A stretch of DNA of 64,000 nucleotides, taken from assembly GCF_013315695.1 (NCBI RefSeq), contig NZ_CP054353.1; one strand, given 5' to 3'. The stretch comes from Escherichia coli. Lineage in GTDB: Bacteria > Pseudomonadota > Gammaproteobacteria > Enterobacterales > Enterobacteriaceae. This document shows, piece after piece, positions 56,878-62,651 of this stretch. Position 1 is the stretch's first letter. Every line of letters starts with the position of its first letter. The position numbers and the translations under genes are program-made. The notes beneath the pieces are model-generated. The model saw only the letters and a program-made list of their open reading frames with translations, had not been told where the DNA came from and ran no database searches.

Positions 56878-59040
56878 ATGGACGTTTCTTACCTGCTCGA
56901 CAGCCTTAATGACAAACAGCGCGAAGCGGTGGCCGCGCCACGCAGCAACCTTCTGGTGCTGGCGGGCGCGGGCAGTGGTAAGACGCGCGTACTGGTGCAT
57001 CGTATCGCCTGGCTGATGAGCGTGGAAAACTGCTCGCCATACTCGATTATGGCGGTAACGTTTACCAACAAAGCGGCGGCGGAGATGCGTCATCGTATCG
57101 GGCAGCTGATGGGCACCAGCCAGGGCGGCATGTGGGTCGGCACCTTCCACGGGCTGGCGCACCGTCTGCTGCGTGCGCACCATATGGACGCCAATCTGCC
57201 GCAGGATTTTCAGATCCTCGACAGCGAGGACCAGCTACGCCTGCTCAAACGCCTAATCAAGGCGATGAACCTCGACGAGAAGCAGTGGCCGCCGCGCCAG
57301 GCAATGTGGTACATCAACAGCCAGAAAGATGAAGGCCTGCGTCCACATCATATTCAAAGCTACGGTAATCCGGTGGAGCAGACCTGGCAGAAGGTGTATC
57401 AGGCGTATCAGGAAGCGTGTGACCGCGCGGGCCTGGTGGACTTCGCCGAGCTGCTGCTACGTGCTCACGAGTTGTGGCTTAACAAACCGCATATCCTTCA
57501 GCACTATCGCGAACGGTTTACCAATATCCTGGTGGACGAATTCCAGGATACCAACAACATTCAGTATGCGTGGATCCGCCTGCTGGCGGGCGATACCGGC
57601 AAAGTGATGATCGTTGGCGATGACGATCAGTCAATCTACGGCTGGCGCGGAGCGCAGGTGGAGAATATTCAGCGTTTCCTCAATGATTTCCCCGGTGCTG
57701 AAACTATCCGTCTGGAGCAGAACTACCGCTCTACCAGCAATATTCTGAGCGCCGCGAACGCCCTGATTGAAAACAACAACGGGCGTTTGGGTAAAAAACT
57801 GTGGACCGATGGCGCGGATGGTGAGCCTATTTCCCTCTATTGCGCTTTTAACGAACTCGATGAAGCGCGTTTTGTGGTTAACCGTATCAAAACCTGGCAG
57901 GACAACGGCGGGGCGCTTGCCGAGTGCGCCATTCTCTACCGCAGCAACGCCCAGTCGCGTGTGCTGGAAGAAGCACTGTTACAGGCAAGTATGCCGTACC
58001 GTATTTACGGCGGGATGCGCTTCTTCGAACGCCAGGAAATCAAAGACGCGCTCTCGTATCTGCGCCTGATTGCCAACCGCAACGACGACGCGGCCTTTGA
58101 GCGTGTGGTTAATACGCCAACGCGGGGTATTGGTGACCGGACGCTGGACGTGGTACGTCAGACATCGCGTGATCGCCAGTTAACACTCTGGCAGGCATGT
58201 CGTGAACTGTTGCAGGAAAAAGCCCTCGCCGGACGTGCTGCCAGTGCCTTACAGCGGTTTATGGAACTGATCGACGCCTTAGCGCAGGAAACTGCCGATA
58301 TGCCGCTGCATGTACAGACTGACCGGGTAATTAAAGACTCCGGCTTGCGCACCATGTACGAGCAGGAGAAGGGCGAAAAAGGTCAGACGCGTATCGAAAA
58401 CCTGGAGGAACTGGTGACGGCAACGCGCCAGTTCAGCTACAACGAAGAAGACGAAGATTTAATGCCGCTGCAGGCATTCCTCTCCCATGCGGCGCTGGAA
58501 GCGGGCGAGGGGCAGGCGGATACCTGGCAGGACGCGGTGCAGTTGATGACGCTACACTCGGCGAAAGGCCTGGAGTTCCCGCAGGTGTTTATCGTTGGTA
58601 TGGAAGAGGGCATGTTCCCAAGCCAGATGTCGCTGGATGAAGGCGGACGTCTGGAAGAAGAACGCCGTCTGGCCTACGTTGGCGTAACCCGCGCGATGCA
58701 GAAACTGACGCTGACCTACGCGGAAACTCGCCGTCTGTATGGCAAAGAGGTTTACCATCGCCCGTCGCGCTTTATCGGTGAGTTGCCGGAAGAGTGTGTG
58801 GAAGAGGTGCGCCTGCGCGCTACGGTAAGCCGCCCGGTCAGCCATCAACGGATGGGTACGCCGATGGTCGAGAACGACAGCGGCTACAAGCTCGGCCAGC
58901 GCGTACGCCACGCTAAGTTTGGTGAAGGCACCATCGTCAATATGGAAGGCAGCGGCGAGCATAGCCGTTTGCAGGTGGCATTCCAGGGCCAGGGTATTAA
59001 ATGGCTGGTGGCGGCTTATGCCCGACTGGAGACGGTGTAA
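56878..59040 (+). CDS. uvrD: DNA helicase II UvrD
   Basis: ORF 56692-59040; start at the ATG giving MDVSYLLDSLNDKQREAVAAP... (720 aa). Confidence 0.96.
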   Translation: MDVSYLLDSLNDKQREAVAAPRSNLLVLAGAGSGKTRVLVHRIAWLMSVENCSPYSIMAVTFTNKAAAEMRHRIGQLMGTSQGGMWVGTFHGLAHRLLRAHHMDANLPQDFQILDSEDQLRLLKRLIKAMNLDEKQWPPRQAMWYINSQKDEGLRPHHIQSYGNPVEQTWQKVYQAYQEACDRAGLVDFAELLLRAHELWLNKPHILQHYRERFTNILVDEFQDTNNIQYAWIRLLAGDTGKVMIVGDDDQSIYGWRGAQVENIQRFLNDFPGAETIRLEQNYRSTSNILSAANALIENNNGRLGKKLWTDGADGEPISLYCAFNELDEARFVVNRIKTWQDNGGALAECAILYRSNAQSRVLEEALLQASMPYRIYGGMRFFERQEIKDALSYLRLIANRNDDAAFERVVNTPTRGIGDRTLDVVRQTSRDRQLTLWQACRELLQEKALAGRAASALQRFMELIDALAQETADMPLHVQTDRVIKDSGLRTMYEQEKGEKGQTRIENLEELVTATRQFSYNEEDEDLMPLQAFLSHAALEAGEGQADTWQDAVQLMTLHSAKGLEFPQVFIVGMEEGMFPSQMSLDEGGRLEEERRLAYVGVTRAMQKLTLTYAETRRLYGKEVYHRPSRFIGELPEECVEEVRLRATVSRPVSHQRMGTPMVENDSGYKLGQRVRHAKFGEGTIVNMEGSGEHSRLQVAFQGQGIKWLVAAYARLETV

Positions 59041-59059
59041 TTTACAACTCCGTTGCAGG

Positions 59060-59080
59060 ATGCGGTGCGCCACACCGCAT
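59060..59080. terminator. Inverted repeat between convergent uvrD and the downstream minus-strand gene (possible terminator, no clear U-run)
   Basis: ATGCGGTG CGCCA CACCGCAT. Confidence 0.35.
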
Positions 59081-59094
59081 TCGGCATCAGCACC

Positions 59095-59997
59095 TTACTT
59101 AGCGCACTTCTTCACATCAATATTCCAGTCAGCACCAGACGCAACCTGATGTTTCTGCGCAAAATTATCCATATTCAGCGCCACGGAAACATTCAATAAG
59201 CTGTTCAGATACACCATCGGCTGGCCTTCCGGCACATCGCCGAAGCTTGCGACATATGGCATTTTCCCTGCGTATTTTTGCTGGGAACCTTCGGAAATGG
59301 TCACACACAACGTGTCGTTGAGTTTGATTCCTGCCTGATTCAGCAACTCGTCGCTGATATTGCTCCAGACGTTGCCGTACTGAATATCGAGAATTGGGAT
59401 ATTGCCCTTCACTTCACCTTTTGTTGCTTTTGCTTTCTGATAAGAAAGTTCGACAACTTTTGCAGGAAGCTCTGGCCCCACCTGTTCGAACGTGATCACT
59501 CCGGAAGCCAGACGCGCACCGGTGTAGGCATATACATCGCGACCATGGAAGGTATATGACTTTTCAGAACCTTTCAGGCGGTTAGCTTTTTCGTCGATTT
59601 CCCGGACGCTATCAATACCCAGAGTTTGTGCCACCAAAGTGAGCGTACCGTTATCTGGTGAAACGAAGTATTGACCGTTTTTGGTTTTCAGCACTACCGA
59701 TTTACGGTCAGTGCCTACGCCCGGATCGACCACGCTAACCAACACCGAACCTTGCGGCCAGTAACTGGCAGTCTGATACAGGCGATAAGCGCCTTCCCAG
59801 ATGTTATACGGTGGAATTTCGTGTGTTAAATCAAAGATTTTAAGATTATGGTCAACGCCGAATGCGACCCCTTTCATCGCCGAGACGGCACCATCTTTCA
59901 GGCTAAAATCAGTTTGTAAAATCAAAGCGTTATCCGCATAGGCGGATGATGATCCCAGACACGTTAATAAAAATAACGTTGCGAGCGTTTTTTTCAT
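59095..59997 (-). CDS. Secreted SAM hydroxide adenosyltransferase-family protein (DUF62; fluorinase/chlorinase-type fold) with N-terminal Sec signal peptide
   Basis: 300-aa ORF, ATG with AAGGGA RBS; signal peptide MKKTLATLFLLTCLGSSSAYA; blocks LTHEIPPYNIWEGA, VDPGVGTDRKSVV, SPDNGTLT, IQYGNVWSNI, QPMVYLNS align with SalL/FlA-type proteins. Confidence 0.8.
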   Translation of the reverse strand: MKKTLATLFLLTCLGSSSAYADNALILQTDFSLKDGAVSAMKGVAFGVDHNLKIFDLTHEIPPYNIWEGAYRLYQTASYWPQGSVLVSVVDPGVGTDRKSVVLKTKNGQYFVSPDNGTLTLVAQTLGIDSVREIDEKANRLKGSEKSYTFHGRDVYAYTGARLASGVITFEQVGPELPAKVVELSYQKAKATKGEVKGNIPILDIQYGNVWSNISDELLNQAGIKLNDTLCVTISEGSQQKYAGKMPYVASFGDVPEGQPMVYLNSLLNVSVALNMDNFAQKHQVASGADWNIDVKKCAK

Positions 59998-60508
59998 TTT
60001 TGTTTCCCTTCATTTATCTGATGATTTTCCAGCTGTGTAGCCAGTCCCAGTTTGTCTGGCCTCCTCGAGTGTACAATGCTTAACCTTTCCGCTCGACGGA
60101 AATCATGGTGACAAAAGGATAGCGTTGCCACGGGATTGCCCCGCCTTTCATATACATATGTGAAATTGTGCCATCAAGATAAAGCAGCTGCTCAACGTTC
60201 AGTTTCGCTTTGGCATAGCAGGCAAAATCATAAAAATTTGTCGCCTGCTGGCTCAACAAAAACACGGCGTTCCCTTGTTTATTAATCCCTACACCGTTAC
60301 GAATTTTACGCGAGGCGACGTTGGGATGAATACGCGGATTAATTACACCGTTTTCCATCAACAATGGCCCTGACTGCACCGCAAACTGAATCTCTTTACT
60401 GGTTTTAAAGGCATCCAGACGAACGATGCCGACTTTATCTCCCGCGACATAAAACACGCCGCCAGGACGAATAAAGAAATTCCCTTCACCTGAAGCGAAA
60501 TTTAACGC

Positions 60509-60520
60509 CACCTTCTGCTG
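60509..60520. repeat. IS4 target-site duplication, left copy (CACCTTCTGCTG)
   Basis: Identical 12-mer immediately flanks both IS4 ends. Confidence 0.9.
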
Positions 60521-61946
60521 TAATGCCAGTCAGTTAAGCAACTGACTGGCTCTTTTTCGGGGCTGTGGGGTATTTCCAGGGCCTCTCCTTTACCACTCTC
60601 GGGAAGGCCCTTTCCCTTCTTGTCGGTAATTTCACAAGTTGTCCCATACTTGCAAGATCGCGCATCAGCTCCGGTATACGTCCCGGTGAAGCGCCCTGCA
60701 ATGTCATCAGCATTCTCATCACCATTCCGCATGATTCTGAGAAACTCAGTTGATTCGGCCAGTAACCTTTCAGATGTTCCGCCATTTTAATCATCTGATA
60801 TCTCACCAGATTATAAGCCAGTAAGACACCCCACAGCTCTTGCTCCACAAGCTCCGGTTTTTTACTTCTCAGCGTCAGCCTGCTCAGTTGCATCGTCTGT
60901 TTTATCTCCCTGTATCCCAGTTCGATTTCCCAGCGATGACTGTACAGATCCGCCATTTCTCCTCCGGGGAAGCGCATGGCGTCCGTCATCGACGTCAGCA
61001 GATGGCAGACTTTTCCTTTGCGCGTCACGGTCAGCAGGCGGGCTGTCACTTCATTTCCCAGTCCCGGCCACTTTTTTCGTGCCTGCGGGCTGGTTTTCAG
61101 CTTCACCAGATGATCGCCTTTACCCAGTTTTCTGATCTCTTCATATTGCGCTCCCTTTCTGAGAGGTATCATCCAGTGGCGGTGTTCTCCCGCCAGGCTC
61201 CAGGCATTTAACAGTCCCAGTGAGTAATAACCTTTATCCATTAACGTCAGAGTGTTATCGCCGGTTTGTTCTATAAGTTGCTCAGCAAGCTCATTTTCGC
61301 TGTTCTTCATCGTGCCGAAGGCTGCAGCCGTCAGCAGATGGCTGGTCAGTTCCATCTGGCAGACCATTTTGACCTGCGGGTAGAGCGCCGGGTTCCCGGC
61401 ATGTGTCTGGCGGGGGAAGGCTGCATCGTTCTCTGGTGTATCCGGTGTGCGCCAGAACACACCATCGATGGCCAGCAGGGTCAGGCCGCACCAGTGCGGA
61501 TGCGGCGTGGCGTTATGCCAGAGCTGCGCTGTTTTCGTGAACACGCGGCGGACAGCCTCACTTCCCAGGCGCTGGCGGGCCTGAATAACGGCACTGGGGG
61601 CAACGAAGGGGCGATTGCCCGGCAGCATGATGTCCAGGCGATTCACAATCTGGTGAAGAGGTTCTTTACGCTCAAGCGCCATGCCAACAATACACCAGAC
61701 CATCATTTCGAGGGGAAGACGGCGCTTGCGTAGCGTTACAGTACCTGATTCGGCAAGGCAACGAGAGATGAGTTCGGGGTCGAGGTAATCCCCCAGAGAA
61801 GTCAGTGGGTTACGCAGAGAATCGTAACGGGATACCAGATCAAGAGCCTGTCCAATGTGCATAAAAAAATCCGGAAACAAGTGAGCGTTTCCGGATTCTT
61901 ACACAGCCACTGGATCGGTCAACTGATCCTTAACTGATCGGCATTA
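60521..61946 (-). mobile_element. Insertion sequence IS4, complete (1426 bp)
   Basis: Terminal inverted repeats TAATGCCAGTCAGTTAAG... and ...CCTTAACTGATCGGCATTA; single transposase ORF; flanked by a perfect 12-bp direct repeat. Confidence 0.95.
60534..61862 (-). CDS. insG: IS4 transposase (DDE family)
   Basis: ORF 60534-61880; ATG at 61862 gives [20 protein letters not shown]... (442 aa). Confidence 0.95.
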
Positions 61947-61958
61947 CACCTTCTGCTG
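61947..61958. repeat. IS4 target-site duplication, right copy (CACCTTCTGCTG)
   Basis: Identical 12-mer immediately flanks both IS4 ends. Confidence 0.9.
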
Positions 61959-62651
61959 ACCGTTTTCGATGTACAAACCGAGCGGCGCATAGCTTTCATC
62001 ATAGATGCCGCCGTTCATCGCCATCTGCACCTGACCCTGACTATTCATATCCGCCAGCAGAGCATGTAACGTTCCCCACGCTTCGCCATTGGCTTTTTGC
62101 CAGTACATTTTCACCCGCTCTGTTTGAGGATTAACGGTATACGCCTGTACGGTCAGCGTCGGATCTGAGAGTGCGCAATCTTCAGCGGCAACAGCAAACA
62201 AGGGAAGTAAGGTGAGGGTGAGAAAAATCCGTTTGAGATTCAAGGTGATCATTCCTTTACCAATGAGTAGCCGATGCGCCATTATAGGTCCTGGATGTGG
62301 GATTTTTTTATCCTGTTAGCGACCTTGACGAGTACCAAAAAGCGCGAAGTTCAACTATTGTTCTGTGGTGTTCTGTTGCGTGTTGACGGCAAAATTTTGC
62401 TGGCGTAACATGCGCGCACGATCACTCTAAGAGGACATTCGCCTTGGACACACCCAGTAGATACTGGCTCACTATCCTGTCATCCAGGATCAACTCCTAA
62501 GGCTATCCCTTTTTGCTGATAGCCTTAGCGGTTGTCAGCGACCTCAATTTTTCCCGTCGCGCTGAGTCAGGCTGTTTAATGGTCTGAAACCCAATTTGTT
62601 TCTGTGTGCCCACCGAACTGTCCGATATTTTAAGCATTGGGAGTCCCGGTC

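Follow-up and report, generated by a model that had tools for sequence, protein, structure and literature searches.

The 64,000-nucleotide stretch of Escherichia coli DNA considered here (assembly GCF_013315695.1, contig NZ_CP054353.1; referred to as the window) carries, at 59095..59997 on the minus strand, a gene for a predicted exported protein of the DUF62, or S-adenosylmethionine (SAM) hydroxide adenosyltransferase, family. The gene, delimited from the open reading frame (ORF) listing and Pfam matches, starts with ATG, comprises 300 codons and a stop, and is flanked by uvrD (ending at 59040) and yigE (whose stop codon lies at 60080). Codons 1-21 (59935..59997, minus strand) encode a putative Sec-type signal peptide, MKKTLATLFLLTCLGSSSAYA, in which the n-, h- and c-regions and the AXA site of a signal peptidase I substrate can be recognized. 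Residues 22-300 (59098..59934, minus strand) form the mature catalytic part, made up of an N-domain, a C-domain and a short C-terminal tail ending in KKCAK. Orthologues include ECs4744 of E. coli O157 Sakai and HP0709 of Helicobacter pylori. The resulting picture is broader than that of a preliminary description of this locus, in which the protein stood as an oddity on its own. It belongs to an extensive exported branch of the family, and it has a near-identical H. pylori orthologue (90% identical), missing from that description, whose presence is most simply read as the outcome of horizontal transfer.

Membership of the DUF62 (SAM_HAT) family is established by sequence and by fold. The ORF is exactly as first described, and its translation contains all five of the motifs from which membership had been proposed. 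The suggested Pfam search matched SAM_HAT_N (PF01887) to residues 26-174 over the full model length (E = 1.8e-52), and SAM_HAT_C (PF20257) matched residues 198-291 (E = 3.9e-18). A phmmer search of the PDB sequences returned family members only, namely the Thermotoga maritima DUF62 protein 2zbu (8e-43), SalL (9e-36), PH0463 (1e-33), MJ1651 (2e-33) and FlA (2e-21). An AlphaFold2 monomer model built from a 59-sequence alignment had a mean predicted local distance difference test score (pLDDT) of 95.8 and a predicted template modelling score (pTM) of 0.90. When this model was compared with the PDB by Foldseek, the best 40 matches were all DUF62, SalL or FlA chains, with template modelling (TM) scores of 0.86/0.91 to 2zbu and 0.87/0.91 to SalL. 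The solved DUF62 hydrolases are 29-34% identical to the window protein.

Hydrolases of this family possess a specific His-Arg-Asp triad that activates a water nucleophile, whereas the halogenases lack the triad and exclude water (PMC10491745). In the window protein the corresponding residues are D91, R98 and H151, which align with D, R and H of 2zbu, as against Y, T and Y in SalL. In addition, Tyr70 of SalL aligns with Val89, and the fluorinase equivalog model TIGR04507 gives 81.5 bits, below its cut-off of 400. The scoring of catalytic positions called for in the preliminary description, made here against 2zbu and SalL, reveals the hydrolase triad and no halogenase pattern. Presence of the triad, absence of the SalL pattern and the low fluorinase score together place the protein, as judged from its residues, with the hydrolase type and not with the halogenases.

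The comparative set came from a one-genome-per-species scan, which gave 80 loci and, after start choice, the 81 closest homologues. In this exported clade D91 and R98 are both kept in 81/81 sequences and H151 in 76/81. The five exceptions, all from Synergistota (loci L046, L053, L059, L060 and L068), have Phe in place of H151 and retain the Asp and the Arg; they may form an inactive or mechanistically altered subgroup. D30, D204, N209 and S266 are likewise invariant or nearly so in the clade, and these are the positions that we take to contact the adenosine and amino-acid moieties in the halogenase structures (FlA/SalL). Over the mature part, the ratio of non-synonymous to synonymous substitution rates (dN/dS) between the E. 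coli and H. pylori copies is 0.045, indicating very strong purifying selection. It is thus well supported, on conservation grounds, that a complete hydrolase active site has been kept under strong constraint.

The N-terminus reads MKK / TLATLFLLTCLG / SSSAYA|DNALILQTDF, with KK in the n-region, an h-region of 12 residues and A-Y-A at positions -3 to -1. Cleavage is predicted after A21, leaving DNALILQTDF as the mature N-terminus, and 2-3 residues separate the signal from the first conserved strand, ALILQTDF. A Shine-Dalgarno-like AAGGGA (60005..60010, minus strand) is found 8 nt 5' of the ATG. Scored by a hydropathy heuristic, 81/81 of the closest homologues have a charged start and a hydrophobic segment directly before the ALV-Q-TDFG strand. 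These proteins represent eight phyla (Proteobacteria, Bacteroidota, Verrucomicrobiota, Synergistota, Fusobacteriota, Tissierellia, Thermotogota and Planctomycetota), and their sources include Escherichia, Helicobacter, about 25 Aeromonas species, Edwardsiella, Pasteurellaceae, Thorsellia, Neisseriales, and Chitinophagaceae and other Bacteroidota. Some distant members carry a lipoprotein lipobox instead (LLTAC in Longitalea; LLGGC, LAGC and AAGC in the cluster representatives P0125, P0193 and P0268), and the occurrence of two kinds of export signal at one position therefore points to the same extracytoplasmic location. Between E. coli and H. pylori the dN/dS of the signal peptide is 0.37, against 0.045 for the mature part, while its physico-chemical layout is kept. 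Faster evolution with retention of layout is usual for real signal peptides. Synthesis from the upstream ATG and export by Sec are well supported by these comparisons, and the earlier view that the signal is real, of predicted Sec type and not an artefact of start choice is borne out by its retention in 81/81 homologues of eight phyla.

A lipoprotein reading of the E. coli LLTC was considered and rejected, as the -2/-1 residues are non-canonical, the Cys lies only 12 residues in, and it is replaced by Q in H. pylori SA213A and absent in Aeromonas. No twin-arginine motif was found in the E. coli, H. pylori or Aeromonas signals.

The cysteine content of the family also supports an extracytoplasmic location, since mature exported representatives contain a mean of 1.66 cysteines versus 4.15 in cytoplasmic-type ones. 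C231 and C298 occur together in 35 sequences of a proteobacterial and Helicobacter subclade, and never singly; in most other exported homologues the mature part is free of cysteine. This pattern suggests a C231-C298 disulfide that would link the C-terminal tail with the C-domain.

When 1.84 billion cluster representatives were searched exhaustively with HMMER, 8660 family clusters were identified, the nearest of which, outside the query's own, is only 55% identical. Among the best 150 of the 8660 representatives (of 50%-identity clusters), about 70 have a signal peptide or lipoprotein signal and 44 are cytoplasmic-type, the rest being fragments. As far as these predicted signals indicate, the exported form is clearly a large part of the nearest family space and not a curiosity. 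A neighbour-joining tree of the full-length representatives was poorly resolved, with about seven changes of export state, and neither a single origin of the export signal nor many origins are claimed from it. None of the papers retrieved on DUF62 mentions a signal peptide, the periplasm or secretion. The exported branch is undescribed in the literature, where the studied members are all cytoplasmic. The Fervidobacterium homologues, of about 640 residues, contain a second DUF62-like segment (with KYGNVHTDI) after the normal C-terminus (L073 6001-7155; L081 6001-7167), an arrangement suggestive of tandem duplication or of fusion within an exported protein.

In E. coli the gene is accessory. The 1039-bp uvrD-yigE interval containing it was found in 2413 of 5426 complete genomes (2412 at a coverage of at least 80%), nearly always on the chromosome, and a K-12-type spacer of 146 bp was found in 2990 genomes at a coverage of at least 80%; together the two states account for 5402 of the 5426. 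K-12 MG1655 has the empty site. The window and K-12 become homologous again precisely at the stop codon of yigE on one side and, on the other, within a palindrome after uvrD that resembles repetitive extragenic palindromic (REP) elements. A second Escherichia species has the gene at the same locus, and at least one copy is a pseudogene. The suspicion in the preliminary description that the gene is lineage-variable and absent from K-12 was thus correct, with 44% of complete E. coli genomes carrying it. Its remark that codon usage is host-like is only partly true. Among the long ORFs of the window the gene is the lowest in GC (47.3%, the median being 53.4%), and its third-position GC (GC3) is likewise below the median (50.7% against 59.7%). 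The E. coli alleles are unusually divergent, with a synonymous divergence (dS) of 0.28 between the window and the species-representative genome (L008 2956-3855), and over the interval the identity is only 90-95% in 121 genomes. Such divergence points to long-standing allele classes or to acquisition from other lineages of Escherichia. Carriage on plasmids was examined and discounted, as the matches of at least 72% identity (two from E. coli and one from Aeromonas) are 4.9-Mb records that look like mislabelled chromosomes. Weaker Enterococcus and Listeria plasmid matches include genuine plasmid-sized records, with cytoplasmic-type homologues.

In carrier genomes the gene is annotated by PGAP as a 'SAM hydrolase/SAM-dependent halogenase family protein'. 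Sakai ECs4744 (L088 23976-24878) is annotated 'acetolactate synthase', as are Shigella and many H. pylori records, and Prokka-annotated H. pylori genomes have 'adenosyl-chloride synthase / salL'. With the hydrolase triad present and the halogenase pattern absent, these database names are wrong or misleading. A literature search for ECs4744 returned nothing relevant.

The best protein matches outside Escherichia and Shigella are from H. pylori and Helicobacter acinonychis. They are exactly 300 residues long and 89-90% identical, and one cluster alone has 2579 member sequences. The genomic context (gyrA, flgR, uvrA, hopE, rsmH, HP0708, the DUF62 gene, homA/B, an HD-domain gene and rpoN) identifies the Helicobacter gene as HP0709, which lies at 8001-8903 in loci L002-L005 and at 4814-5701 in L010. 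The E. coli gene and HP0709 align without gaps, with 84% nucleotide, 90% amino-acid and 65% third-position identity; between them, dS is 0.92 and dN/dS 0.059. GC content is 43% in the 38% H. pylori genome and locus, and 47% in the 52% E. coli window, values intermediate between the two hosts. HP0709 (UniProt O25413; jhp0648) has the same signal layout and the same Cys pair as the E. coli protein. It differs in its setting, rsmH-HP0708-HP0709-homA/HD-domain gene, which adjoins a prophage integration hotspot.

The next relatives, at 71-75% identity, are mostly gammaproteobacterial (Aeromonas, Edwardsiella, Pasteurellaceae and Thorsellia), together with a Neisseriales lineage, and no other Campylobacterota were present among the 80 best loci. 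Neighbour-joining bootstrap values were 100% for Escherichia with Helicobacter, 95% for this pair with Edwardsiella, 82% for the gamma/beta clade, 100% for Escherichia monophyly and 66% for Helicobacter monophyly. Based on the 90% identity, the grouping with Escherichia inside a gammaproteobacterial clade and the dS of 0.92, the simplest reading is an old inter-phylum transfer, probably from an Enterobacterales lineage to the ancestor of H. pylori and H. acinonychis. On the same simplest reading, the transfer would predate the split of the divergent South African strain SA213A, with purifying selection in both hosts since. The Edwardsiella piscicida homologue lies between a LysE/RhtB-family gene and recQ (L063 5183-8682), and in E. 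coli recQ-rhtC-rhtB is only about 8 kb from the uvrD-yigE site. The Edwardsiella recQ neighbourhood may be a trace of an old shared Enterobacterales chromosomal neighbourhood.

Phage carriage of the Helicobacter gene was also considered and rejected. The record 'Helicobacter phage Pt11444_1' (PQ159899.1, L089), deposited as a complete phage genome and the only close match in the phage collection, contains a chromosomal gyrA fragment, flgR, uvrA, hopE, rsmH, HP0708 and HP0709. A known hotspot of prophage integration has HP0709, homA and the HD-domain gene at its flanks (PMC11321410); this explains the misleading 'Helicobacter phage' match, the prophage boundaries having overrun into the chromosome. 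Staphylococcus and Listeria 'phage' matches are 45-47% identical, come from unannotated records and align from residue 20-25.

The earlier assessment of the gene as uncharacterised stands. No functional study of HP0709 was found in the searched literature, only omics and genome-wide association study (GWAS) lists. The protein was detected in outer-membrane-vesicle proteomes (PMC8756444). An RNA-seq table comparing biofilm and planktonic cells of H. pylori SS1 lists the gene as 'salL' with a value of 2.87, and the methionine transporter gene metI with 2.18 (PMC6212823). In a GWAS, a D-to-N change of HP0709 at nucleotide 145 was linked with gastric-cancer risk (PMC6090961). By count, this variant affects D49, a residue of the conserved 'GVD' stretch that follows the first helix (at about 59851-59853 of the window).

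Several other features surround the gene in the window. The 41 nucleotides at 59050..59090, between the convergent uvrD and DUF62 genes, form the GC-rich REP-like palindrome GGATGCGGTG-CGCCA-CACCGCATTC, the left half of which is common to the K-12 empty site in an alignment with the K-12 spacer; it is a probable bidirectional terminator. Upstream on the same strand, an 82-nt spacer (59998..60079, minus strand) separates the yigE stop codon from the start of the DUF62 gene. The preliminary description had named yigE as the neighbour, which is right, but in this strain yigE is split by an insertion of IS4. The 3' part of yigE (DUF2233 / phosphodiester glycosidase family) occupies 60080..60520 and the 5' part, with a signal-like beginning, MITLNLKRIFLTLTLLPLFAVA, occupies 61947..62252, both on the minus strand. 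Both parts were delimited by alignment with K-12 yigE, the 5' part also from its ORF translation. The 1426-bp IS4 (60521..61946, minus strand), recognized from its transposase ORF, its repeats and the alignment with intact K-12 yigE, has terminal inverted repeats of about 18 bp and is bordered by a 12-bp target duplication, CACCTTCTGCTG, at 60509-60520 and 61947-61958. In E. coli AF3, 100% identical over the interval, it is annotated 'IS4-like element IS4 family transposase', and that strain has an additional IS1A in yigE. The corA-rarD segment is also variable, K-12 having yigF and yigG, and O157 Sakai and AF3 other hypothetical genes (L001 11340-12300; L088 27087-29682; L006 4920-5694).

A promoter scan of the 82-nt spacer gave no sigma-70 site of consensus quality, and a promoter and terminator scan of 58950-60350 gave no more sites than shuffled sequences. 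The DUF62 gene may be co-transcribed with yigE or have a weak promoter of its own. As IS4 lies upstream in the direction of transcription, it could be polar on the DUF62 gene, which may be poorly expressed in this strain if it depends on the yigE promoter.

Across lineages, all-against-all clustering of four genes on each side at 68 loci identified no conserved partner. The recurrent neighbour families are housekeeping ones, such as a MacB-type ABC transporter, a DEAD-box helicase or RecQ, and regulators. Lineage-specific neighbours were nevertheless seen. In Fusobacteriales/Sebaldella an exported class-II cAMP phosphodiesterase (PF02112, 3.4e-51) lies directly downstream (L054 2156-3157; L051 6993-7982), a Neisseriales/Burkholderiales lineage has deoB and a hydrolase-deoC fusion nearby (L017 3984-6956), and two Chitinophagaceae have neighbouring TonB-dependent receptors (L065 6903-9626; L043 3004-5862). 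The window protein matched none of the families in the PADLOC anti-phage defence models.

The reading proposed here, to which a probability of about 0.5 is assigned, is that the protein is a periplasmic SAM hydrolase that would release adenosine and methionine for uptake, that is, a SAM scavenger. Comparative evidence argues strongly for the first steps, in which a precursor would be made from the ATG at 59997, exported by Sec and cut by signal peptidase I after A21, and would then fold in the periplasm, probably as the family's usual homotrimer, in which the active sites lie at subunit interfaces. In the proteobacterial subclade the fold is probably stabilized by the C231-C298 disulfide. The conserved Asp91-Arg98-His151 would activate water for attack on C5' of an adenosyl-sulfonium substrate. 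The likeliest substrate would be SAM that enters the periplasm after lysis of host or microbial cells, perhaps as the (R,S) epimer accumulating outside cells, and the products would be adenosine and L-methionine, presumably imported by the existing nucleoside and methionine transporters. In this way a metabolite that E. coli cannot import would be converted into two that it can, as is the case with UshA, CpdB and CpdP. The stand-alone gene and its scattered neighbours, some of which are suggestive of uptake or nucleoside use, fit such a scavenger. Also counted in its favour are the listing of the H. pylori gene together with metI in the biofilm table and the detection of HP0709 in vesicles. 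H. pylori lacks de novo purine synthesis and requires methionine. It grows efficiently on adenosine, taken up via NupC (PMC3368855), and the products would therefore be useful there.

A number of observations weigh against this proposal. The scores of the (R)-SAM hydrolase equivalogs NF058624 and NF053629 are below the cut-offs (133.4 bits against 350 and 116.4 against 470, respectively), so that by these models the protein is a family member only, of an uncharacterised subfamily, and not an equivalog of the characterised (R)-SAM hydrolases. With scores this far below the cut-offs, its substrate may therefore differ. For the characterised DUF62 hydrolases the substrate is the (R,S) epimer (PMC10491745; bioRxiv 10.1101/2025.08.29.672840). 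Moreover, modest salt strongly inhibits StDUF62, and the authors of that work question whether hydrolysing SAM is its physiological function (PMC12120602); such inhibition would be a poor property for a periplasmic scavenger. The neighbourhood hints are each confined to one lineage. At Rfam gathering thresholds, a scan of 24 loci (267 kb) detected no riboswitch for SAM or methionine, its only matches being a fragment of rRNA and an unrelated cobalamin riboswitch, and neither the promoter scan nor Rfam revealed a regulatory link to methionine or purine metabolism. The vesicle proteome list that includes HP0709 also includes ribosomal proteins and is no proof of location. Lastly, the Cys pair is essentially one evolutionary event, reflecting retention and not repeated covariation.

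The protein could also be an exported, active adenosyl-transfer enzyme whose physiological substrate is not SAM, which we regard as possible though somewhat unlikely. Decarboxylated SAM, a SAM-derived natural product, a nucleoside toxin to be detoxified or another 5'-substituted adenosine or adenosyl-sulfonium compound could then be the substrate. Besides the lack of equivalog status, the nearest solved relatives are only 30-34% identical, and the arginine that follows Asn-Ser in SalL (YLNSRG), which presumably binds the methionine carboxylate in the halogenases, is a leucine here (YLNSLL). However, 2zbu likewise lacks that arginine, the triad and the contact residues D30, D204, N209 and S266 (whose roles we assume from the halogenases) vary little or not at all within the exported clade, and the neighbourhood comparison turned up no genes related to biosynthesis or toxins. 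The physiological role of the family as a whole is, on the other hand, openly questioned (PMC12120602). A non-catalytic role had been raised in the preliminary description, and it could be that of an exported nucleoside- or SAM-binding, structural or adhesive protein. The five Synergistota homologues with Phe for His indicate that some exported members persist without a complete triad, but D91 and R98 are kept in 81/81 and H151 in 76/81, E. coli and H. pylori included, D30, D204, N209 and S266 are invariant or nearly so, and a dN/dS of 0.045 extends across the whole mature domain. Such a role is accordingly very improbable.

Automatic H. pylori annotations ('adenosyl-chloride synthase', 'salL') imply a periplasmic SalL-like chlorinase that would make 5'-chloro-5'-deoxyadenosine in chloride-rich surroundings, and there are local resemblances in that G152 aligns with G131 of SalL and YGNVW(S/T)NI resembles both SalL and FlA. 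The active site argues otherwise, with the triad in place of the Y, T and Y of SalL, Val89 in place of SalL Tyr70 and a fluorinase equivalog score of 81 bits against 400, and triad-bearing StDUF62 makes no chloroadenosine (PMC12120602). We consider a chlorinase extremely improbable. The same applies to the idea that the signal peptide is an artefact and that translation from an internal start yields a cytoplasmic enzyme. The sole other in-frame start-type codon before the domain is a TTG at codon 25, and initiation there would give M-ILQTDF, resembling the N-termini of cytoplasmic relatives such as MKHALVFQSDFG. Yet this TTG lacks a Shine-Dalgarno sequence, which the ATG has; the upstream 21-24 codons are open and signal-like in 81/81 homologues despite low sequence identity; and the depletion and pairing of cysteines fit export. 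A cytoplasmic product is thus hardly credible.

The role of DUF62 hydrolases is still argued, between clearing of the inactive (R,S)-SAM epimer and something else. Since at least 70 of the 150 nearest clusters and all 81 of the closest species have the exported form, intracellular SAM repair is unlikely for those members. Extracellular scavenging of SAM or adenosyl compounds is a testable alternative, with E. coli strains with and without the gene available in roughly equal numbers. The H. pylori copy provides a clear inter-phylum transfer of a predicted periplasmic enzyme between bacteria of the human gut and stomach, and the gene, which databases at present misname, has already come up in a gastric-cancer GWAS of H. 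pylori. A more far-reaching possibility, which is speculative and distinctly unlikely on present evidence, is that exported DUF62 proteins are widespread, unrecognised extracytoplasmic adenosyl-transfer enzymes acting on SAM-like compounds of the host or environment, the shared gene being a host-adaptation factor in H. pylori and pathogenic E. coli. If so, the enzyme would nourish a pathogen dependent on purines and methionine or produce extracellular adenosine with immunomodulatory effects, the association of HP0709 D49N with gastric cancer could be explained, and the long-debated physiological role of DUF62 would lie partly outside the cell.

Among known systems, the closest are the DUF62 SAM hydrolases PH0463 (1wu8/2wr8), MJ1651 (2f4n/22uy), the T. 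maritima protein (2zbu) and StDUF62 and SaDUF62 of Salinispora, which share with the window protein the two-domain fold (TM 0.75-0.91), the Pfam domains and the His-Arg-Asp triad. The solved chains align from their residues 3-15, and hence without a signal peptide, and the characterised hydrolases are treated as cytoplasmic, whereas the window protein has a predicted cleavable export signal, few cysteines and a C-terminal tail with a conserved Cys. SalL and FlA have the same fold and SN2 (bimolecular nucleophilic substitution) adenosyl-transfer scaffold (TM 0.84-0.88), and SalL has the YGNVW(S/T)NI and YLNS motifs in common with the window protein; however, both are cytoplasmic and encoded in biosynthetic clusters, while the window gene stands alone. 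The SAMase of phage T3, a SAM lyase, also destroys SAM, which is what it has in common with the proposed activity. It is a cytoplasmic protein directed against restriction, works by a lyase mechanism that gives 5'-methylthioadenosine (MTA) and homoserine lactone, and has a fold unrelated to that of the window protein. In its proposed way of working, the window protein is most like the periplasmic scavengers UshA, CpdB and AphA of E. coli and CpdP of Vibrio fischeri, each a Sec-exported, stand-alone hydrolase that converts a non-importable adenosine metabolite into importable products; the phosphodiesterase encoded downstream of the Fusobacteriales homologue is itself of the CpdP type. These enzymes have unrelated folds and hydrolyse phosphoesters, unlike the predicted attack at C5' of a sulfonium compound, and the analogy is thus one of way of working and not of family.

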